The position numbers were made by a program, and so were the translations under genes. From positions 3,872,001-3,936,000 of the forward strand of contig OY968796.1 in assembly GCA_963695545.1 (NCBI GenBank): a DNA stretch of 64,000 nt, given 5' to 3'. This stretch comes from Terriglobia bacterium. Lineage in GTDB: Bacteria > Acidobacteriota > Terriglobia > Acidiferrales > UBA7541. Below are positions 1 through 6,361 of this stretch, piece after piece; position 1 is the first letter of the stretch, and every line of letters starts with the position of its first letter. The notes beneath the pieces were generated by a model that was not told the DNA's origin, ran no database searches, and saw nothing but the letters and a program-made list of their open reading frames with translations.

Positions 1-1949
1 AGCCAAATATCGCGCGTGCTCAAATGCGGATCGGCGATATCCACGGCGAGTCGATCTCCGTCCGGCGAAAGGGCCGGGCAGCAGTAAGCGGCGGGCTGCC
101 CGAGCGTCCCGAGCTTCTTCCCGCTTCGATCAAACCACTGGAGCTCGGTCTGACTGGTCGCTCCCGCAGGAATGTAGGTCAGGATGCCGTTCTGAGAAGC
201 CGAAAAAGACTGCGCGGTGTCAGGTCCAAGTTGCACGTAGGGATTGACGCCCTCGGCGATGGGGACGGCATCGCCTGTGGTCACCAGGCGCTGGGCATCG
301 AAGGGCTGAGCCATCAAGGTCTCGCCGCGGGTATAGAGCAGATCGCCCGGAGGGGCGTATTCGGCGCCTCCGTCGGCGTTCAGCAAGCATTTCGTTTCGC
401 TTGAGTCGAGCGAGCCAACACAGAGCCACGGTTCGTTGAGTGCGGTGGAGCGAATGGAGGCGTAGAGGAAATGGCGACCGTCCGGCAGGAACCAAGGGTA
501 TGCCTGCGAGATTTCCCGGACCGATCGATCAAGCGTGGTGAAAGGGACGGGCTCGCCGCCGGCATCGGGAACTTTCACGAGTGGGCCGCCGAGACTGAGG
601 ACAATCACGCCATCGCTGTTCCAGCTTGCGCCAAATCCTCCCACTGCGTCGCAGAGCGTCTGCGGGGTTCCGCCCGAGACTGCCACCTTCTTGAGCGTAG
701 CTCCGTCAAAAAAGCCCAGGTAATGGCTGTCGGGCGACCAAAAAGGGCGACGCGCACCGTCGGTTCCCGCCAGCGGCTGCGCGGCGACATTATTGAGCGC
801 GCGCAACCATAGTTGGCGGGTTCCGTCCTTGGTGAGGGCTGTAAAGGCCAAGAGACGGCCGTCGGGCGAGAGGCTTACTGCTCCCCAAGTCGCATCCTCG
901 GACGGGAGGGAGAAGAGGAAGCGGGTGACGCTGGGTTTGGGCTGGTTGAGGTACGGACGAAGGTACACAAAGACCAGGGCCGCGGCGACGAGCAGCGCCG
1001 CGCAGGCGGTCGCGGCCAGCGCCCATGCGATTCTTTCGCGGCTGCGACGGTGGGCGACGACGGGCGCGGCGACGCCGGCTTGCGAGCCGGCTTCGGAGAT
1101 CCATTTCAATTCGTCGCGAAGGTCTCCGGCCGATTGCCAGCGATCGTCGGGATCTTTCGCGAGACATTTCTTCACGACGCGGTCGAGCGCGGGCGGCGTC
1201 ATGGGTTGAAGCGAGGAGATGGGCGGCGGATCGACCTCAAGAATTTTCGCGATCAAACTGGCTTGACTCTTGCCCTCGAAGGCTTTTTTGCCCGTGGCCA
1301 TCTCGTAGATCACGGTGCCGAATGAGAAGATGTCCGTGCGCGCGTCTGCTTCCCTGCTTTCGAGTTGCTCGGGCGCCATGTATTGCAGCGTGCCGACGAT
1401 GGTGCCTTCGGCGGTGATCGGACGATCGACAGCGGGCAACGTGGTGAGCGTGGCCGACGTCACGGCCGTTTCGCGCGTGAGTTTCGCCAGCCCGAAATCG
1501 AGCAGCTTCACGCCGGATTTGGTGAGCATGATGTTGCCAGGTTTCAGATCGCGATGGGTGATGCCGTTGCGGTGGGCTTTGTCGAGAGCGTCGGCGATTT
1601 CGATGGCGTACTGCAACACTTGCTCGGCGGGGAGCGGGCCTTTGAGGAGGCGCTGCGCGAGCGTTTCGCCTTCGACGAGCTCCATGACCAGATAGTCTGT
1701 GCCGGCCTCGCGGCCGATATCGTGGAGCGTGCAAATGTGCGGATGATTCAGGCTGGCGATGGTGCGGGCTTCGCGCTCGAAGCGCTCGCGCAAATCGGGG
1801 CGGTCGGCGAGATGCGGCGGCAAGACTTTGATGGCTACGACTCGGTCGAGGCGAGAGTCGCGGGCGCGATAGACTTCTCCCATGCCGCCAGCTCCGAGCG
1901 GAGCGACGATTTCGTAGGGACCTAGTTTCGTGCCATTCGCGAGGGGCAT
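1..1949 (-). CDS. Ser/Thr (Hanks-type) protein kinase with TM segment and C-terminal TolB/PD40-like repeats; 3' end runs off the window
   Basis: Manual translation from ATG 1949 gives MPLANGTKLGPYEIVAPLGAGGMGEVYRARD...VAIKVLP...HRDLKPGNIML...DFGLA...GTLQYMAPE. It is absent from the ORF track because there is no stop in the window. Confidence 0.92.
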   Translation of the reverse strand, partial: MPLANGTKLGPYEIVAPLGAGGMGEVYRARDSRLDRVVAIKVLPPHLADRPDLRERFEREARTIASLNHPHICTLHDIGREAGTDYLVMELVEGETLAQRLLKGPLPAEQVLQYAIEIADALDKAHRNGITHRDLKPGNIMLTKSGVKLLDFGLAKLTRETAVTSATLTTLPAVDRPITAEGTIVGTLQYMAPEQLESREADARTDIFSFGTVIYEMATGKKAFEGKSQASLIAKILEVDPPPISSLQPMTPPALDRVVKKCLAKDPDDRWQSAGDLRDELKWISEAGSQAGVAAPVVAHRRSRERIAWALAATACAALLVAAALVFVYLRPYLNQPKPSVTRFLFSLPSEDATWGAVSLSPDGRLLAFTALTKDGTRQLWLRALNNVAAQPLAGTDGARRPFWSPDSHYLGFFDGATLKKVAVSGGTPQTLCDAVGGFGASWNSDGVIVLSLGGPLVKVPDAGGEPVPFTTLDRSVREISQAYPWFLPDGRHFLYASIRSTALNEPWLCVGSLDSSETKCLLNADGGAEYAPPGDLLYTRGETLMAQPFDAQRLVTTGDAVPIAEGVNPYVQLGPDTAQSFSASQNGILTYIPAGATSQTELQWFDRSGKKLGTLGQPAAYCCPALSPDGDRLAVDIADPHLSTRDIW

Positions 1950-2069
1950 TGGTTGGACGCAGTATACGCCGGAAGAATTATGCCGGCGCGATAAACCGAT
2001 GCGCGCGCGGATTGGGGCGGAGGAGTTCAAGCATTCAGGCGTGGTGGCTCTTGCGCGCAAAAACAAGAT

Positions 2070-2093
2070 GGAGGCCTGAAGGCCTCCGCTACA
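2070..2093 (-). repeat. REP-like palindrome (GTAG-type)
   Basis: Minus strand reads TGTAGC-GGAGGCC-TTCA-GGCCTCC, a GTAG motif followed by a perfect 7-bp hairpin. Confidence 0.55.
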
Positions 2094-2184
2094 TAAGACC
2101 GTGCGACGTTACTTTGTAATCGTCCCGTGGTTTAGTGGGCGCGGGCTGCGTCACGAGGTGGTTTGGCGCCGCAGCTTTCGATTC

Positions 2185-3201
2185 TTAGGGACGCGGCGAT
2201 GGCGCGGCGACGCGACCGATGAGTTTTCGCGAAAAGGGGCGCAGTTCCTGAAGATGCTCGCGCAGGTAAACCACGAGACGCTGCTTCTTGCCCCTTCCGC
2301 GCTTGGATGTTGCTTCGCCCGACTGGGAGTCGCTGGGGACCAATTCCGGATTGATCGCGGCTACCCGGCGGTAGATCGAGATCCACATTTTCTTGGTTGC
2401 GGAGAGCGAGACACCCAGCTCGTCGCTCAATTCCTCGTCGGTTCCTCCGGCGAGCGCGGAGAGCAGCAATCGCTGCTCGCTGGGGCGGAATGCGAAGCGT
2501 GGGGGCTCGAAGAGAAAGAGATAGCCGATCCAGGTTCCGAGCTGCTTTTGGGCGATCTCACGAGTGAGGCCGGAGATGTGGGGCCGCGAGAGAATGTCCT
2601 GAAGATCTTGTTCCTCGAAAGCGCCATAGCCGCCGTGCGCGGAATTCCACATGCGGCCGCCGGTGTTGCGCATCCCGATCAAGTGCTCCGGGCTGTCGGC
2701 TTGGCCTACCAATTCCTTCAAGCGAAAGCCGCGGTGATCGTTGAAGAACGCGGCCATGAGCTCGGCCCCTACTTCCGCGCGCTTAACATCTTCGCCGCGA
2801 ATGCAAACGTGCCACATCACAAGATTCAGGCCGCCCCGCGAATTCGCTTCACAAACTTGCTTTTCGGAGAGTAGCGGAGAATCGCCGCGAATCACGCGCC
2901 TGGCCAGTTCAGGGCCAATCCAAAAGGATGGCGGCGTTTTCACTTCGCGCAGGAAATCGTCGGAGGCGAAAACGGAGGCGCCGACGCCGAGCAGCCGCGG
3001 CCGCGCGCGGACGGCTCCTTCGTCAACTTCTTCAAACACCGATGTGCCGCAGAAACCGTTGGAGCGAAGCAAATGAAGCCAGGCCGGGGCTAAATCCGCG
3101 ATGGATTTGGAGTATCGCGGTCCGACAACGGGATCCGCGGCGACGATTGCGACGCACTCACGGACATCGTTCGGGCGCATGGGGCGGTGCCGAATGCTCA
3201 T
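2185..3201 (-). CDS. Uncharacterised transcriptional regulator, copy 1: GNAT-like N-terminus plus C-terminal LuxR-like HTH
   Basis: 338 aa. C-terminal FRPSEQRLLLSALAGGTDEELSDELGVSLSATKKMWISIYRRV fits the LuxR HTH pattern. N-terminal IRHRPMRPNDVRECVAIV resembles GNAT beta1-alpha1. Paralog at 4372-5418. Confidence 0.75.
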   Translation of the reverse strand: MSIRHRPMRPNDVRECVAIVAADPVVGPRYSKSIADLAPAWLHLLRSNGFCGTSVFEEVDEGAVRARPRLLGVGASVFASDDFLREVKTPPSFWIGPELARRVIRGDSPLLSEKQVCEANSRGGLNLVMWHVCIRGEDVKRAEVGAELMAAFFNDHRGFRLKELVGQADSPEHLIGMRNTGGRMWNSAHGGYGAFEEQDLQDILSRPHISGLTREIAQKQLGTWIGYLFLFEPPRFAFRPSEQRLLLSALAGGTDEELSDELGVSLSATKKMWISIYRRVAAINPELVPSDSQSGEATSKRGRGKKQRLVVYLREHLQELRPFSRKLIGRVAAPSPRP

Positions 3202-3259
3202 GTGCAGATCCCAAGCTCCATTTGGCGGCTAGTGGTACCAGGACTCATGCTGCGCGCGC

Positions 3260-3346
3260 ACTGCCCTTTTAGACCGCTTGTTTATAGCATCCTGCTATGC
3301 ATAATTCCACAATTCACGTTCTCAGTAATTGGCGACGGTGTGGCGA
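3260..3346. promoter_or_regulatory. Conserved divergent promoter/operator block, copy 1
   Basis: Aligns with 5483-5569 in blocks ACTGCCCT, CTTGyTTATAGCA, TGCATAATTCCA(A)CAATTCAC and ACGGTGyGGCGA. Plus strand has TTGTTT-16-CATAAT; minus strand has TGCTATAA. Confidence 0.6.
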
Positions 3347-3384
3347 TCCCCGCGCGGCACCCTCGAATGTTCACTGGAGGATCA

Positions 3385-4293
3385 ATGACAGCGGAATCGG
3401 AGCTTCATCAGCATTCGCGTCGCGAAGGCCAGCGGCAAACAGCGAAAGAAATTGCCACGCGACACGCATCGCCACGCTTGGCGCTGTTCACTTTGCTGGC
3501 AATCGCCGTGGCGCTGGCGGCCCCGTGCGCATCGCGCGCGGATGATTTGCCGGCGGCCACACTCGGGCAGGTGATGCAAACTATAACCCCGTACCCGCCG
3601 GGCCCAATCCTCGAAGGTCCCGGCCTGTCGAGCTTCTCCTTGACCAACCCGGGGTTTGAAGGAGGGACCGCCACAGCTACCACCTATGCGTCCTATGCTG
3701 ACGGGACGGCGACGATTGTGGGAAGCGGCACAACGTCGGGGGAGGCAAACGTGCCAGAGATCACGGCGACGGTCGGAGTGAGTTACTCCTTCGAGATCGT
3801 CGGCCCGGAAAGCGACGTGGAAGTGCCGATCATCATCTCCGCAAGCGCGAGCACTTCGGTCACCGGCAAAGGGTCCGCGACCGTAAACACCGCCGTCGGT
3901 GGCGATGTACTTAGCGGCGGGGGTACCCTCAACGCTTGCTCCGAGGTAGGCTTTTCGGCTTGCACTTACCCGTCGTCCTTTTCAGGATCGATCGACGCTG
4001 TCGTTTATTCGAATGACCCAGAGTATTCCATTAACATTGACGCCTCCGGAATGGGATACGATACGAGCTCTTGGACCTTTTCTGCCGATCCTTCGATCGA
4101 GATAGACCCAAGCTTCGCGGACGCGGACGAATACTCGATCGTATACAGCGCCGACGATGCGGCTTCAACCGGGCCGCCGACACCGCCCCCGACTACTGCG
4201 CCAGAGCCTTCGGGCCTCGCCATGCTTGGAATTGGCTTGCTCGCTCTGGTGGGTTTGAAGCTCTCGAAACTCGAAGCGCGCGCCGAAGCGTGA
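3385..4293 (+). CDS. PEP-CTERM sorting-domain surface protein (Ser/Thr/Gly-rich, acidic)
   Basis: GGAGG RBS before ATG 3385. Hydrophobic signal peptide LFTLLAIAVALAAPCASRA. C-terminus APEPSGLAMLGIGLLALVGLKLSK. Confidence 0.88.
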   Translation: MTAESELHQHSRREGQRQTAKEIATRHASPRLALFTLLAIAVALAAPCASRADDLPAATLGQVMQTITPYPPGPILEGPGLSSFSLTNPGFEGGTATATTYASYADGTATIVGSGTTSGEANVPEITATVGVSYSFEIVGPESDVEVPIIISASASTSVTGKGSATVNTAVGGDVLSGGGTLNACSEVGFSACTYPSSFSGSIDAVVYSNDPEYSINIDASGMGYDTSSWTFSADPSIEIDPSFADADEYSIVYSADDAASTGPPTPPPTTAPEPSGLAMLGIGLLALVGLKLSKLEARAEA

Positions 4294-4371
4294 CGAATAT
4301 TCGTGCCGTGCCGCGATTTGGTCGCGTTGGGCGCCCGGCGCGAATCTAGCGGGAATCCGCCACCAACTCGT

Positions 4372-5418
4372 TCAAATGAAGTCCGATGCAGTTCTATCCT
4401 GGTCGCAGCTTCGCTCGCGCGCGGTGTTCTCTTGCAGTATTTTTCGCGAAACCGGGCGCAGTTCTTGGCGATGCTCGCGGAGATAGGCGATCAGGCGTTG
4501 CTTCTTATTCTTCCCGCGCTTGGATGCCTCTCCGTTGGCCTGCGAATCGCTGGGGACTAATTCCGGATTGATTGCGGCTACGCGGCGGTAGATGGAGCGC
4601 CACATCTTCCTAATTGTGGAAAGCGAGACGCCCAACTGGTCGCTCAATTGCTCGTCGATTCCGCCGGCGAGCGCGGCAAGCAACAATCGCTGCTCGCTTG
4701 TGCTAAAGCCGAAACGCGGCGGCTCGTAAAGAAAAAGAGAACCGACCCATGAGCCGAGTTGCGTTTGCGCTATCTCGCGCGTGTACCCGGAAATGTGCGG
4801 CTCCCTAACGATTTCGTGCAGGTTTTCCCCATCGAAATCGGTATAGCAGCCGTCCGAAGATCTCAACAGGCGCCCACCGCTGCCCCGCATACCCTCCAAG
4901 TGCTCCGGGCTTTCGCCATGCGCCACCAGCTCGTTCAAAAGGAAACCGCGGTGCTCATCGAGGAACGCCGTCATCAGTTCGGCCCAAACATCTGCACGCT
5001 TAATATCTTCCACGCGGATACACGCTTGCCACACGGCAAGGTTGAGGCCGCCGCGCGCATTTGCGTCGCGCACCTGCTTTTCGGAAAGCAGCGGAGAATC
5101 GCCGCGCATCACGCGTTTCACCAACTCGGGACCGATCCAGAGGAATGGCGGGGTTTTCAATTCGCGGAGAAAATCGTCGGAAACAAATACGGTGACGCCG
5201 ACCCCGAGCAATCGAGCGCGAGCGCGGCCCGCGGCTTCGTCGATTTCTTCGAACACGACGGCAGAACAAAAACCGTTGGAGGAAAGCAACCGAAGCCAAG
5301 CGGGGCGCAGTTCTGCGAGCGCGTCGCCATAGCGCGGCGCGACAATTGGGTGCGACGCGACGATCTCGACGCACTCGCGGACATCCTTCGGCCGCATGGG
5401 GCGATGCCGGATGCTCAT
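4372..5418 (-). CDS. Uncharacterised transcriptional regulator, copy 2: GNAT-like N-terminus plus C-terminal LuxR-like HTH
   Basis: 348 aa, collinear with 2185-3201. Shared runs include MSIRHRPMRP, RGDSPLLSEKQV, SEQRLLL, SIYRRVAAINPELVPSDSQ and YLREHxQELRP. Confidence 0.75.
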   Translation of the reverse strand: MSIRHRPMRPKDVRECVEIVASHPIVAPRYGDALAELRPAWLRLLSSNGFCSAVVFEEIDEAAGRARARLLGVGVTVFVSDDFLRELKTPPFLWIGPELVKRVMRGDSPLLSEKQVRDANARGGLNLAVWQACIRVEDIKRADVWAELMTAFLDEHRGFLLNELVAHGESPEHLEGMRGSGGRLLRSSDGCYTDFDGENLHEIVREPHISGYTREIAQTQLGSWVGSLFLYEPPRFGFSTSEQRLLLAALAGGIDEQLSDQLGVSLSTIRKMWRSIYRRVAAINPELVPSDSQANGEASKRGKNKKQRLIAYLREHRQELRPVSRKILQENTARERSCDQDRTASDFI

Positions 5419-5482
5419 GGACGGATCCCACGCCCGGTCCAGGTACTAGACGTACTAGAAATGCTCCAGGCCGATGCGCCTT

Positions 5483-5569
5483 ACTGCCCTCTAAGAGGTC
5501 TTGCTTATAGCACTCTCCGTTGCATAATTCCAACAATTCACCATTTCCAAACGCGCTACGGTGCGGCGA
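5483..5569. promoter_or_regulatory. Conserved divergent promoter/operator block, copy 2
   Basis: Homologous to 3260-3346. Plus strand has TTGCTT-16-CATAAT; minus strand has TGCTATAA. Confidence 0.6.
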
Positions 5570-5680
5570 AAGCGAATGGCAAAAGATTCCGCGGCGTAGA
5601 TGGAATTGTTTCGGGTTGCTCGGAGGAAGTGAAATCGGATGAGGATTATATTTAGCAGCTCAAGTTAAGGAGCCACGACG

Positions 5681-6361
5681 ATGATGAAGGCCCAGTCATT
5701 CCGTTTCGCGCTGTGCACATTTGGAATTATTGCTTTCTGCCTTGTGCTCTCGCCAAGACCTTGCGCGGCCGACCCGACCGCGATCGGCCCTTCGACTAGC
5801 AGTACCTTGGAGGCTGCCTCCTATTCTTATGAGATTCCGGGTGCGCTCGTGGTGAGCGGGTACGCAACAGGCAGCACCTACGATGCCGGCTTCGAAGGCG
5901 CGGTATTCTGTGGTGGCGACGGTTCATGGTCTTGGTGCAGCGGCGGCGCAACGAGTTATAGTCTTGACGTTCCTGGGGTCTTTGAGGGGGCGCTCTACGA
6001 CACTGGCGCCTCCGTAACGCTGACACAGGCCTCCGTGGATAGTCCGATCGTTCTCACCTATGTTGTGGACGGCTACACGGTGGTGTTCGATCTGTATGAA
6101 GACCCGGTTTTACTCTCCTCGCTCACGTATGAATCGCCCGAAGTAGACGGAGTCAGCTACGTTAACCTTACGGTTACAGGCGGCTGCTATGACAACAGCG
6201 CGACGCCATGTACACCCGCATCCTCCACGCCGCCGCCGTCGAACGCGCCGGAGCCAGCGTCCCTCGGTCTGCTCGCTGCGGGCCTGGCGGGATTGGGATT
6301 GATGGTCGGATTGCGCCGGCGGAAAGAACTGCTGCATCAGCGGAGTTTGGCGGCCGCGTAG
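5681..6361 (+). CDS. PEP-CTERM sorting-domain surface protein
   Basis: AAGGAG RBS and a signal peptide. C-terminus APEPASLGLLAAGLAGLGLMVGLRRRK has the PEP motif, TM segment and basic cluster. Confidence 0.92.
   Translation: MMKAQSFRFALCTFGIIAFCLVLSPRPCAADPTAIGPSTSSTLEAASYSYEIPGALVVSGYATGSTYDAGFEGAVFCGGDGSWSWCSGGATSYSLDVPGVFEGALYDTGASVTLTQASVDSPIVLTYVVDGYTVVFDLYEDPVLLSSLTYESPEVDGVSYVNLTVTGGCYDNSATPCTPASSTPPPSNAPEPASLGLLAAGLAGLGLMVGLRRRKELLHQRSLAAA

Follow-up and report, generated by a model that had tools for sequence, protein, structure and literature searches.

The window analysed here is the whole of a 64,000-nucleotide stretch of DNA from a Terriglobia bacterium (Acidobacteriota; contig OY968796.1, positions 3,872,001 to 3,936,000), and near its start, between positions 2,185 and 6,361, lie two modules in which the gene of a predicted one-component regulator on the minus strand stands divergent to the gene of a PEP-CTERM protein on the plus strand. 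An earlier note on this DNA had described the arrangement as occurring twice in a row; the open reading frames (ORFs) are as it described them, and a third module adjoins them. Our analysis suggests that each module is a local switch for an exported protein, with PEP-CTERM proteins as one class of passenger. The genes of the two modules, with protein lengths in amino acids (aa), are:

2185..3201, minus strand: regulator 1 (P0001), 338 aa; domains assigned by homology to regulator 2, namely a GNAT-fold N-domain (~1-230), a LuxR/NarL-type helix-turn-helix (HTH; ~238-283) and a conserved tail (~300-323)
3385..4293, plus strand: PEP-CTERM protein 1 (P0003), 302 aa; signal-peptide-like start, Ser/Thr/Gly-rich body, PEP tail
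4372..5418, minus strand: regulator 2 (P0002), 348 aa; structure modelled
5681..6361, plus strand: PEP-CTERM protein 2 (P0004), 226 aa; PF07589 at 23.3 bits, above cut-off

The two regulators are close paralogs, as had been claimed, with 69% identity across 328 aa. Their partners, said to be without visible similarity, are indeed largely dissimilar, but they do share a stretch of 11 residues at the PEP tail, together with a weak match of 24% over 131 aa (E 0.046). P0004 scores above the cut-offs of both PF07589 and TIGR02595, and P0003 falls slightly below both (15.5 of 20.7 bits; 14.7 of 16); by eye, the P0003 tail has APEP, hydrophobic and basic parts. The start of P0003 is most likely the ATG at 3385, with GGAGG at 3376-3380, rather than that of a longer GTG frame, and its single-sequence model has a predicted local distance difference test (pLDDT) score of 39.8. 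P0003 is 30% identical to the partner in a Roseiarcus locus (L051), and P0004 is 34% identical to the partner in L004. The third module (G000 C1:3869299-3871186) lies directly before the window, past a Ser/Thr kinase gene, and its PEP-CTERM protein, which scores above cut-off, is related to P0003 (44% over 64 aa). A fourth paralog, 29% identical, is found at C1:1313182, opposite a TIG and beta-propeller protein whose N-terminus resembles a signal peptide. The host genome is a single contig of 4.16 Mb, 94% complete, and its closest named relatives are Candidatus Acidiferrales.

A GNAT fold joined to a LuxR/NarL-type HTH

Against Pfam and NCBIfam, P0001 and P0002 give no meaningful family match. 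An AlphaFold model of P0002, built from a 74-sequence alignment, has a pLDDT of 91.5, and its residues 1-230 form a GNAT fold (top Z 12.7, root-mean-square deviation 3.1 Å, 163 residues aligned in the VIA search). The 50 VIA matches listed are all GNAT-type chains aligned to these residues, many of them tied and none distinct, and the same fold is returned by Foldseek and by an Atlas search (template modelling (TM) scores of 0.75-0.80 by target). Between GNAT strands three and four sits a conserved three-helix insertion (residues 80-122). Residues 238-283 form an HTH of the LuxR/NarL type, with ChrA (E 0.0023), SdiA, RhlR and VraR as best PDB profile matches and with GerE as the Atlas structure match (TM 0.82 by target). 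Among 83 family members, PF00196 is matched in 12 at E <=0.05, and weak matches to sigma-70 region 4/extracytoplasmic function (ECF) families are equally frequent (17/83). C-terminal of the HTH, a variable loop leads to the tail RGxEKKxxLLxYLRxHPEELRP, the part of the protein that is best conserved across the family, and the same 83 members have neither a REC domain (PF00072) nor an autoinducer-binding domain (PF03472). The earlier note's view of the protein, a GNAT-like N-domain without REC motifs followed by a LuxR-like HTH and a conserved tail, is therefore borne out, the tail being conserved as RGxxKKxxLxxYLREHxxELRP.

What, then, might the N-domain do? In GNAT enzymes, motif A (R/QxxGxG/A) binds the pyrophosphate of coenzyme A (CoA). 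In the regulators, conservation across the family is lowest in the loop at this position, with glycine at no more than 14% per column, a variable length and an often acidic character in the distant clade. The motif itself occurs there in only 2/83 members, in a register set by secondary structure and by an HHalign match of low probability (1.9%) with six sequences from genomes, of which one was in the wrong frame. Because the loop is poorly conserved and lacks the glycines, we read the N-domain as a catalytically dead GNAT that would serve as a sensor, and acyl-CoA sensing, which had been suggested for it, becomes unlikely as stated. No acyltransferase family is among the NCBIfam or Pfam matches of the 83 members, and no N-acyl amino acid synthase or LuxI family is among their NCBIfam matches; structures of the latter two kinds are absent from the 50 VIA matches listed and may thus stand further down. 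TIGR03694 was not found in the host genome at its 94% completeness, and nothing here supports, for the regulator family, the connection of N-acyl amino acid synthases with exosortases that had been invoked.

The family is sizeable. Scoring of 8,000 candidates gave 921 related proteins, and at 50% identity there are 1,585 representatives, 1,098 of them at E <=1e-10, labelled in databases as hypothetical, CsgD-family or NarL-family. No longer form with a fused N-domain was found at E <=0.001 in a set of 4,620 candidates (610-2,000 aa), which is weak evidence. An Atlas cluster of 138-aa Acidobacteriota proteins matches the HTH and tail alone and may represent stand-alone forms or fragments.

The intergenic element and its predicted promoters

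Two sets of regulators were compared: a genome set, comprising the best 79 loci of 144 matches in a species-level genome set (71 Acidobacteriota by label, 2 unlabelled Acidoferrum, 2 Pseudomonadota, 3 Eremiobacterota/Vulcanimicrobiota and 1 Dormiibacterota), and a second set of 54 regulators, taken from three other loci and from 80 metagenome matches out of at least 536, with many contigs short. Upstream of the regulators lies a shared motif, mostly 43-46 bases from the regulator start, that consists of a quasi-palindrome with the core C-TTTTA-G, then TTGTTT, a spacer of 16 base pairs (bp) and a -10-like hexamer; it is found in 73/84 upstream regions, the same regions on which its matrix was trained. 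In the window, the element and the promoters predicted around it are:

3260..3278, no strand: operator-like quasi-palindrome 1, a putative binding site; centre 3269, about -43 of the partner promoter; 46.8 bits
3278..3305, plus strand: predicted sigma-70-type promoter of PEP-CTERM 1; -35 TTGTTT 3278-3283, 16 bp, -10 CATAAT 3300-3305
3281..3289, minus strand: predicted extended -10 of regulator 1; TGnTATAAA; the start site would lie within the operator
5483..5501, no strand: operator-like quasi-palindrome 2; centre 5492; 37.6 bits
5501..5528, plus strand: predicted promoter of PEP-CTERM 2; TTGCTT 5501-5506, 16 bp, CATAAT 5523-5528
5504..5512, minus strand: predicted extended -10 of regulator 2; TGnTATAAG

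A matrix built without the host sites and run over the 4.16 Mb of the host genome gives three high scores (47.5, 46.8 and 37.6 bits), one per close module; the best site outside the modules reaches 17.5 bits and the shuffled maximum is 15.9. Applied to the second set, the matrix of the first set places 37/45 distinct upstream regions above the 95th percentile of shuffles. The region upstream of the fourth paralog is missed by the matrix; by eye, its core is inverted and lies ahead of TTG. A distal regulon in the host was considered and rejected, the high-scoring sites being at the three modules only; a matrix of the operator alone did no better than shuffles, so weak isolated sites may still exist.

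As to the promoters, a 16-bp spacer is best in 46/71 sites and a 17-bp spacer in 22. TG goes with TA in 41/42 sites and is present in 2/29 sites without TA, and the conserved spacer bases read on the other strand as the extended -10 TGnTATAAA. The element would thereby be centred near -43 of the predicted partner promoter while covering the predicted start of the regulator transcript; in module 1, the transcripts are predicted to begin at about 3312 (plus strand) and about 3274 (minus strand). The C-TTTTA-G core lies outside both predicted sets of promoter hexamers, yet few parts are as well conserved. When the sites are pooled, the arms are complementary at +-5 in 59/98 cases, with 28 expected, which argues with moderate strength for a true dyad symmetry. 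Additionally, a change of KK to RR in the recognition helix goes with a change of the conserved G to C, seen in 3/3 well-registered RR sites versus 2/95 KK sites (115/136 rows kept; 16 dropped, 5 duplicates). Within the three intergenic regions, a sigma-54 pattern finds no match, and its overall frequency is at chance level; PrsR (TIGR02915) has no match above cut-off in the host genome. The system is independent of PrsR and sigma-54.

One subclade (L123-L199; e.g. L141, L142, L143, L157, L199) has longer intergenic regions, an asymmetric site and extra conserved motifs, and its partner genes encode tyrosinases, proteases, phospholipase D (PLD) and oxidases in which no signal peptide was detected.

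Exported partners and the spread of the family

In the genome set, 71/79 regulators with room upstream face a coding-like divergent gene, so the layout is not due to chance. By an export heuristic, 53/71 of these partners are exported, compared with 29-37% in controls (770/2,684 host genes, 278/952 head-to-head genes, 150/408 other genes of the same loci). They include Kelch, NHL, SBBP and FG-GAP propellers, beta-helices, multicopper oxidases, cytochrome c, RHS and TIG proteins (by a Pfam scan of 78 proteins, four from the host genome, with long ones cut), and 48 partner families are counted for 72 regulators. In close modules, DNA similarity usually stops ~90 bp from the regulator start, just beyond the partner -10. 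PEP-CTERM partners stand opposite 6/79 regulators of the genome set (5 by Pfam, 1 split gene by pattern) and, by pattern and with one false match discarded, 0/54 of the second set with its many short contigs; over the tree of regulators they are scattered (7 changes for 8 rows, with 87/500 shuffles as low). In other words, the usual neighbour, scored across genomes as the earlier note wished, is an exported protein of nearly any type, and a specific tie to PEP-CTERM and exosortase is not supported. The exosortase that it expected elsewhere in the genome does exist (PF09721, 137.7 bits, C1:1524943), the sole one found, alongside ~13 PEP-CTERM genes; it comes after a very short PEP-CTERM-tailed ORF (L088:1055-1288 and 1402-2334).

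The commonest partner family is a ~460-aa secreted protein with cytochrome c motifs (L015, L017, L019, L020, L036, L037, L046, L056), with weak RoxA-like and CCP/MauG matches, and it is co-inherited with one regulator clade. Elsewhere, partners that are in some cases unrelated have a common N-terminal start, MSER... (L003, L043, L047, L052), which suggests exchange downstream of the signal peptide.

The family is patchy: it is present in 2/61 close relatives, and in a survey of 401 Acidobacteriota genomes, with five candidates scored per genome, matches reach beyond the HTH in 5, two of them broken, the other 50 matches being confined to the HTH. Two or more regulator starts occur in 15/79 loci. 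In eight loci (L003, L006, L008, L013, L016, L022, L042, L069), two to three tandem regulators stand behind one promoter and one partner, and such regulators possibly form heterodimers or bring several ligands to bear on one partner. In L055, L060, L063 and L080, regulator pairs are convergent, each facing outward to its own partner, with one site degenerate in L055 and L080. Many regulator copies have frameshifts or stops, from decay or assembly error, as in L008, L013, L026, L034, L040, L043 and L047 and in G315 and G410. Plasmids gave no regulator match; viral contigs gave one locus, where a distant family member (L089:640-1590) lies near genes that look, by eye, terminase-like and portal-like.

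In the host, ~10 kb with the three modules and the Ser/Thr kinase gene sit between a lytS-like histidine kinase gene and ribA, which in a sister genome (G004) lie ~95 bp apart. This insertion hot spot spans L001:8722-18716, reaching to about 6716 in the window (comparison loci L205 and L206), and in G001 it carries a different insert, ~13 kb of insertion sequence (IS) elements and secreted proteins. The 19-kb locus has no tRNA, no GC shift and, among the longest repeats listed, no terminal repeats, so no dedicated mobility mechanism was identified. One further feature belongs to the island:

3..2066, minus strand: Ser/Thr kinase with PD40 propeller, between modules 1-2 and the third module; same island, without operator

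Short repeats at window positions 2040-2105 and at L001:8861-9020 have 53 and 69 BLASTN matches in the host genome; the former is a hairpin like a repetitive extragenic palindrome, next to the kinase gene, at the other end of which a similar hairpin is found (L001:11186-11240). From a small share of one RNA run, a single 272-nt contig, possibly of DNA origin, is identical to 5797-6068 inside P0004 and gives a weak hint of its expression; the lack of cover elsewhere on the modules shows nothing.

Proposed mechanism, alternatives and known systems

We think it probable that each module is a local one-component activator/autorepressor cassette, in which a GNAT domain senses a small molecule and the passenger is a swappable exported protein. 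Each would be a self-contained divergon, its regulator a one-component transcription factor made of a dead GNAT ligand sensor and a LuxR/NarL-type HTH. The regulator would bind the quasi-palindrome near -43 of the partner promoter, probably as a dimer, and through contact with RNA polymerase would activate this promoter, a weak one of sigma-70 type with a poor -35 and a 16-bp spacer. Bound there, it would also block the extended -10 promoter of its own gene, which overlaps the site. The conserved unit stops just past the partner -10, so that any exported-protein gene placed behind it would fall under the switch, PEP-CTERM proteins being one passenger class. As to the ligand, our bet is on a small diffusible compound from soil or host that the whole family shares, rather than on acyl-CoA. 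Of the earlier note's proposal, an uncharacterised one-component GNAT and LuxR-HTH family with one regulator per gene and exchangeable partners is supported, and the operator-like element adds support for local control. More tentatively, all members of the family may be receptors, derived from GNAT proteins, for a single extracellular cue, for example an acylated or amine-type metabolite of soil or host; the regulator and its ~90 bp promoter would then be a portable socket that lets bacteria of several phyla connect any secreted gene, those of adhesins, oxidases and proteases among them, to a new chemical signal without an adjacent cognate synthase.

A number of observations weigh against this account. 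The position of the site at -43 leaves the sign of control unfixed. The slid control of the symmetry test was also raised (52 vs 31 expected), only 4/8 double changes in 26 disjoint pairs were compensatory (slid controls 2/9 and 0/9), and one large subclade has a plainly asymmetric site. The match between helix and base amounts to one evolutionary event in one clade, and a fourth RR site, in poor register, was scored G by the script. Export was judged by a lenient heuristic of our own, which only 24/45 partners in the second set pass; the five non-passing ones that were scanned (a tyrosinase, M4 and C70 peptidases, a PLD and a multicopper oxidase) belong to extracellular-type enzyme families without a detected signal, and a few genome-set partners are cytoplasmic (an AMP-binding enzyme, an NmrA-like protein, a kinase). 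As for exchange, 22/40 regulator pairs at least 70% identical retain homologous partners, and the other 18/40 include some frameshift artefacts.

Among the alternatives, the best placed, if unlikely, keeps the cassette and the site and has the regulator repress both promoters until a ligand releases it. The right arm of the site does touch the first -35 base and cover the predicted regulator start, and a few distant loci (L146, L168) have near-consensus promoters with 17-bp spacers; however, the site lies upstream of the -35 rather than across -35 to +1, and most partner promoters combine a poor -35 with a 16-bp spacer, a combination typical of activator-dependent promoters. Less likely again is a working acyltransferase or acyl-CoA sensor, whether in the earlier note's version or as a trigger enzyme: the GNAT fold is complete, R141 and E143 of the loop are kept in the close clade (92% and 77%) and E163 family-wide (87%), and GNAT-like decarboxylases are among the tied top structure matches, but the glycine-poor, variable motif A loop and the lack of acyltransferase family matches speak against it. 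We regard it as improbable that the element is merely a pair of overlapping promoters, or a host-factor site, inherited with the regulator, and that exported partners reflect insertion hot spots rich in such genes. In a sister genome, the hot spot does contain IS elements and further secreted genes, exported proteins are somewhat frequent among the neighbouring genes (37%), and the independent-pair symmetry test is weak; yet the C-TTTTA-G core, outside the promoter hexamers, is conserved across regulators just 30-45% identical and has no other high-scoring copy in the host genome. Least credible is a dedicated regulator of PEP-CTERM/exosortase cargo in place of PrsR, largely refuted for the family: all three close host paralogs face PEP-CTERM genes, the host has one exosortase and no PrsR above cut-off, and 6/79 exceeds the genome-wide share of the ~13 PEP-CTERM genes, but 73/79 regulators face something else, the closest relatives (L003) stand opposite a non-PEP protein, and about ten other host PEP-CTERM genes lack a high-scoring site.

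We are encouraged by what the local activator/autorepressor cassette would offer. A family of this size has no Pfam or NCBIfam model, and in the open-access literature we found no description of it (most subscription papers being outside that reach). What appears new among one-component regulators is the sensor architecture, the predicted operator and the exchangeable secreted partners; a GNAT fold apparently stripped of catalysis would be a new class of sensor for LuxR/NarL regulators. With the operator and both promoters predicted, one gene and ~100 bp would form a complete biosensor, which makes the signal directly testable in a laboratory strain, and the partners amount to a ready catalogue of exported proteins whose expression in soil Acidobacteria may answer to the same cue, including a possible route to PEP-CTERM control outside the sigma-54/PrsR scheme.

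How do these regulators compare with known systems? Residues 1-230 share the fold of GNAT acetyltransferases and decarboxylases (SxtA, CurA, RimI, Naa-type; Z 11-12.7, 7-16% identity), but they carry the three-helix insertion, lack the motif A glycines and are fused N-terminally to a LuxR-type HTH; the non-catalytic GNAT PanZ and MarR-GNAT fusions are further cases for comparison. EpsA (TIGR03020, XrtB/PEP-CTERM-associated) is likewise, by its NCBIfam description, a LuxR-type regulator tied to PEP-CTERM systems. However, the regulators match it in the HTH only (13-18 bits vs a cut-off of 170; 4 of 6 matching members re-scanned), EpsA has 247 residues vs ~330 here, and the partners here are mostly not PEP-CTERM proteins. 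PrsK/PrsR/PrsT, described by Haft et al. 2006 (PMC1569441) as governing a global two-component, sigma-54 PEP-CTERM regulon of Proteobacteria, also controls transcription of PEP-CTERM genes through an upstream cis element, whereas the control predicted here is local, one-component and sigma-70-like. LuxR and LuxR solos at the lux box, which is given as centred at -42.5 (PMC3376562), have in common with the regulators here a LuxR/NarL-type HTH and an inverted-repeat-like site of ~19-20 bp near -43. The differences are that the sensor here is a GNAT fold and not an autoinducer-binding domain, that the site has an A-tract core and no distal regulon in the host genome, and that an inserted loop of ~15 residues precedes the last HTH helix, which bears the family-specific RG..KK..YLRxHPEELRP tail. 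LuxR-type activators also occur divergent to their targets, as in the modules here. In their working, these regulators would resemble a LuxR divergon, yet they belong neither to the quorum-sensing LuxR proteins nor to the response regulators nor to EpsA.

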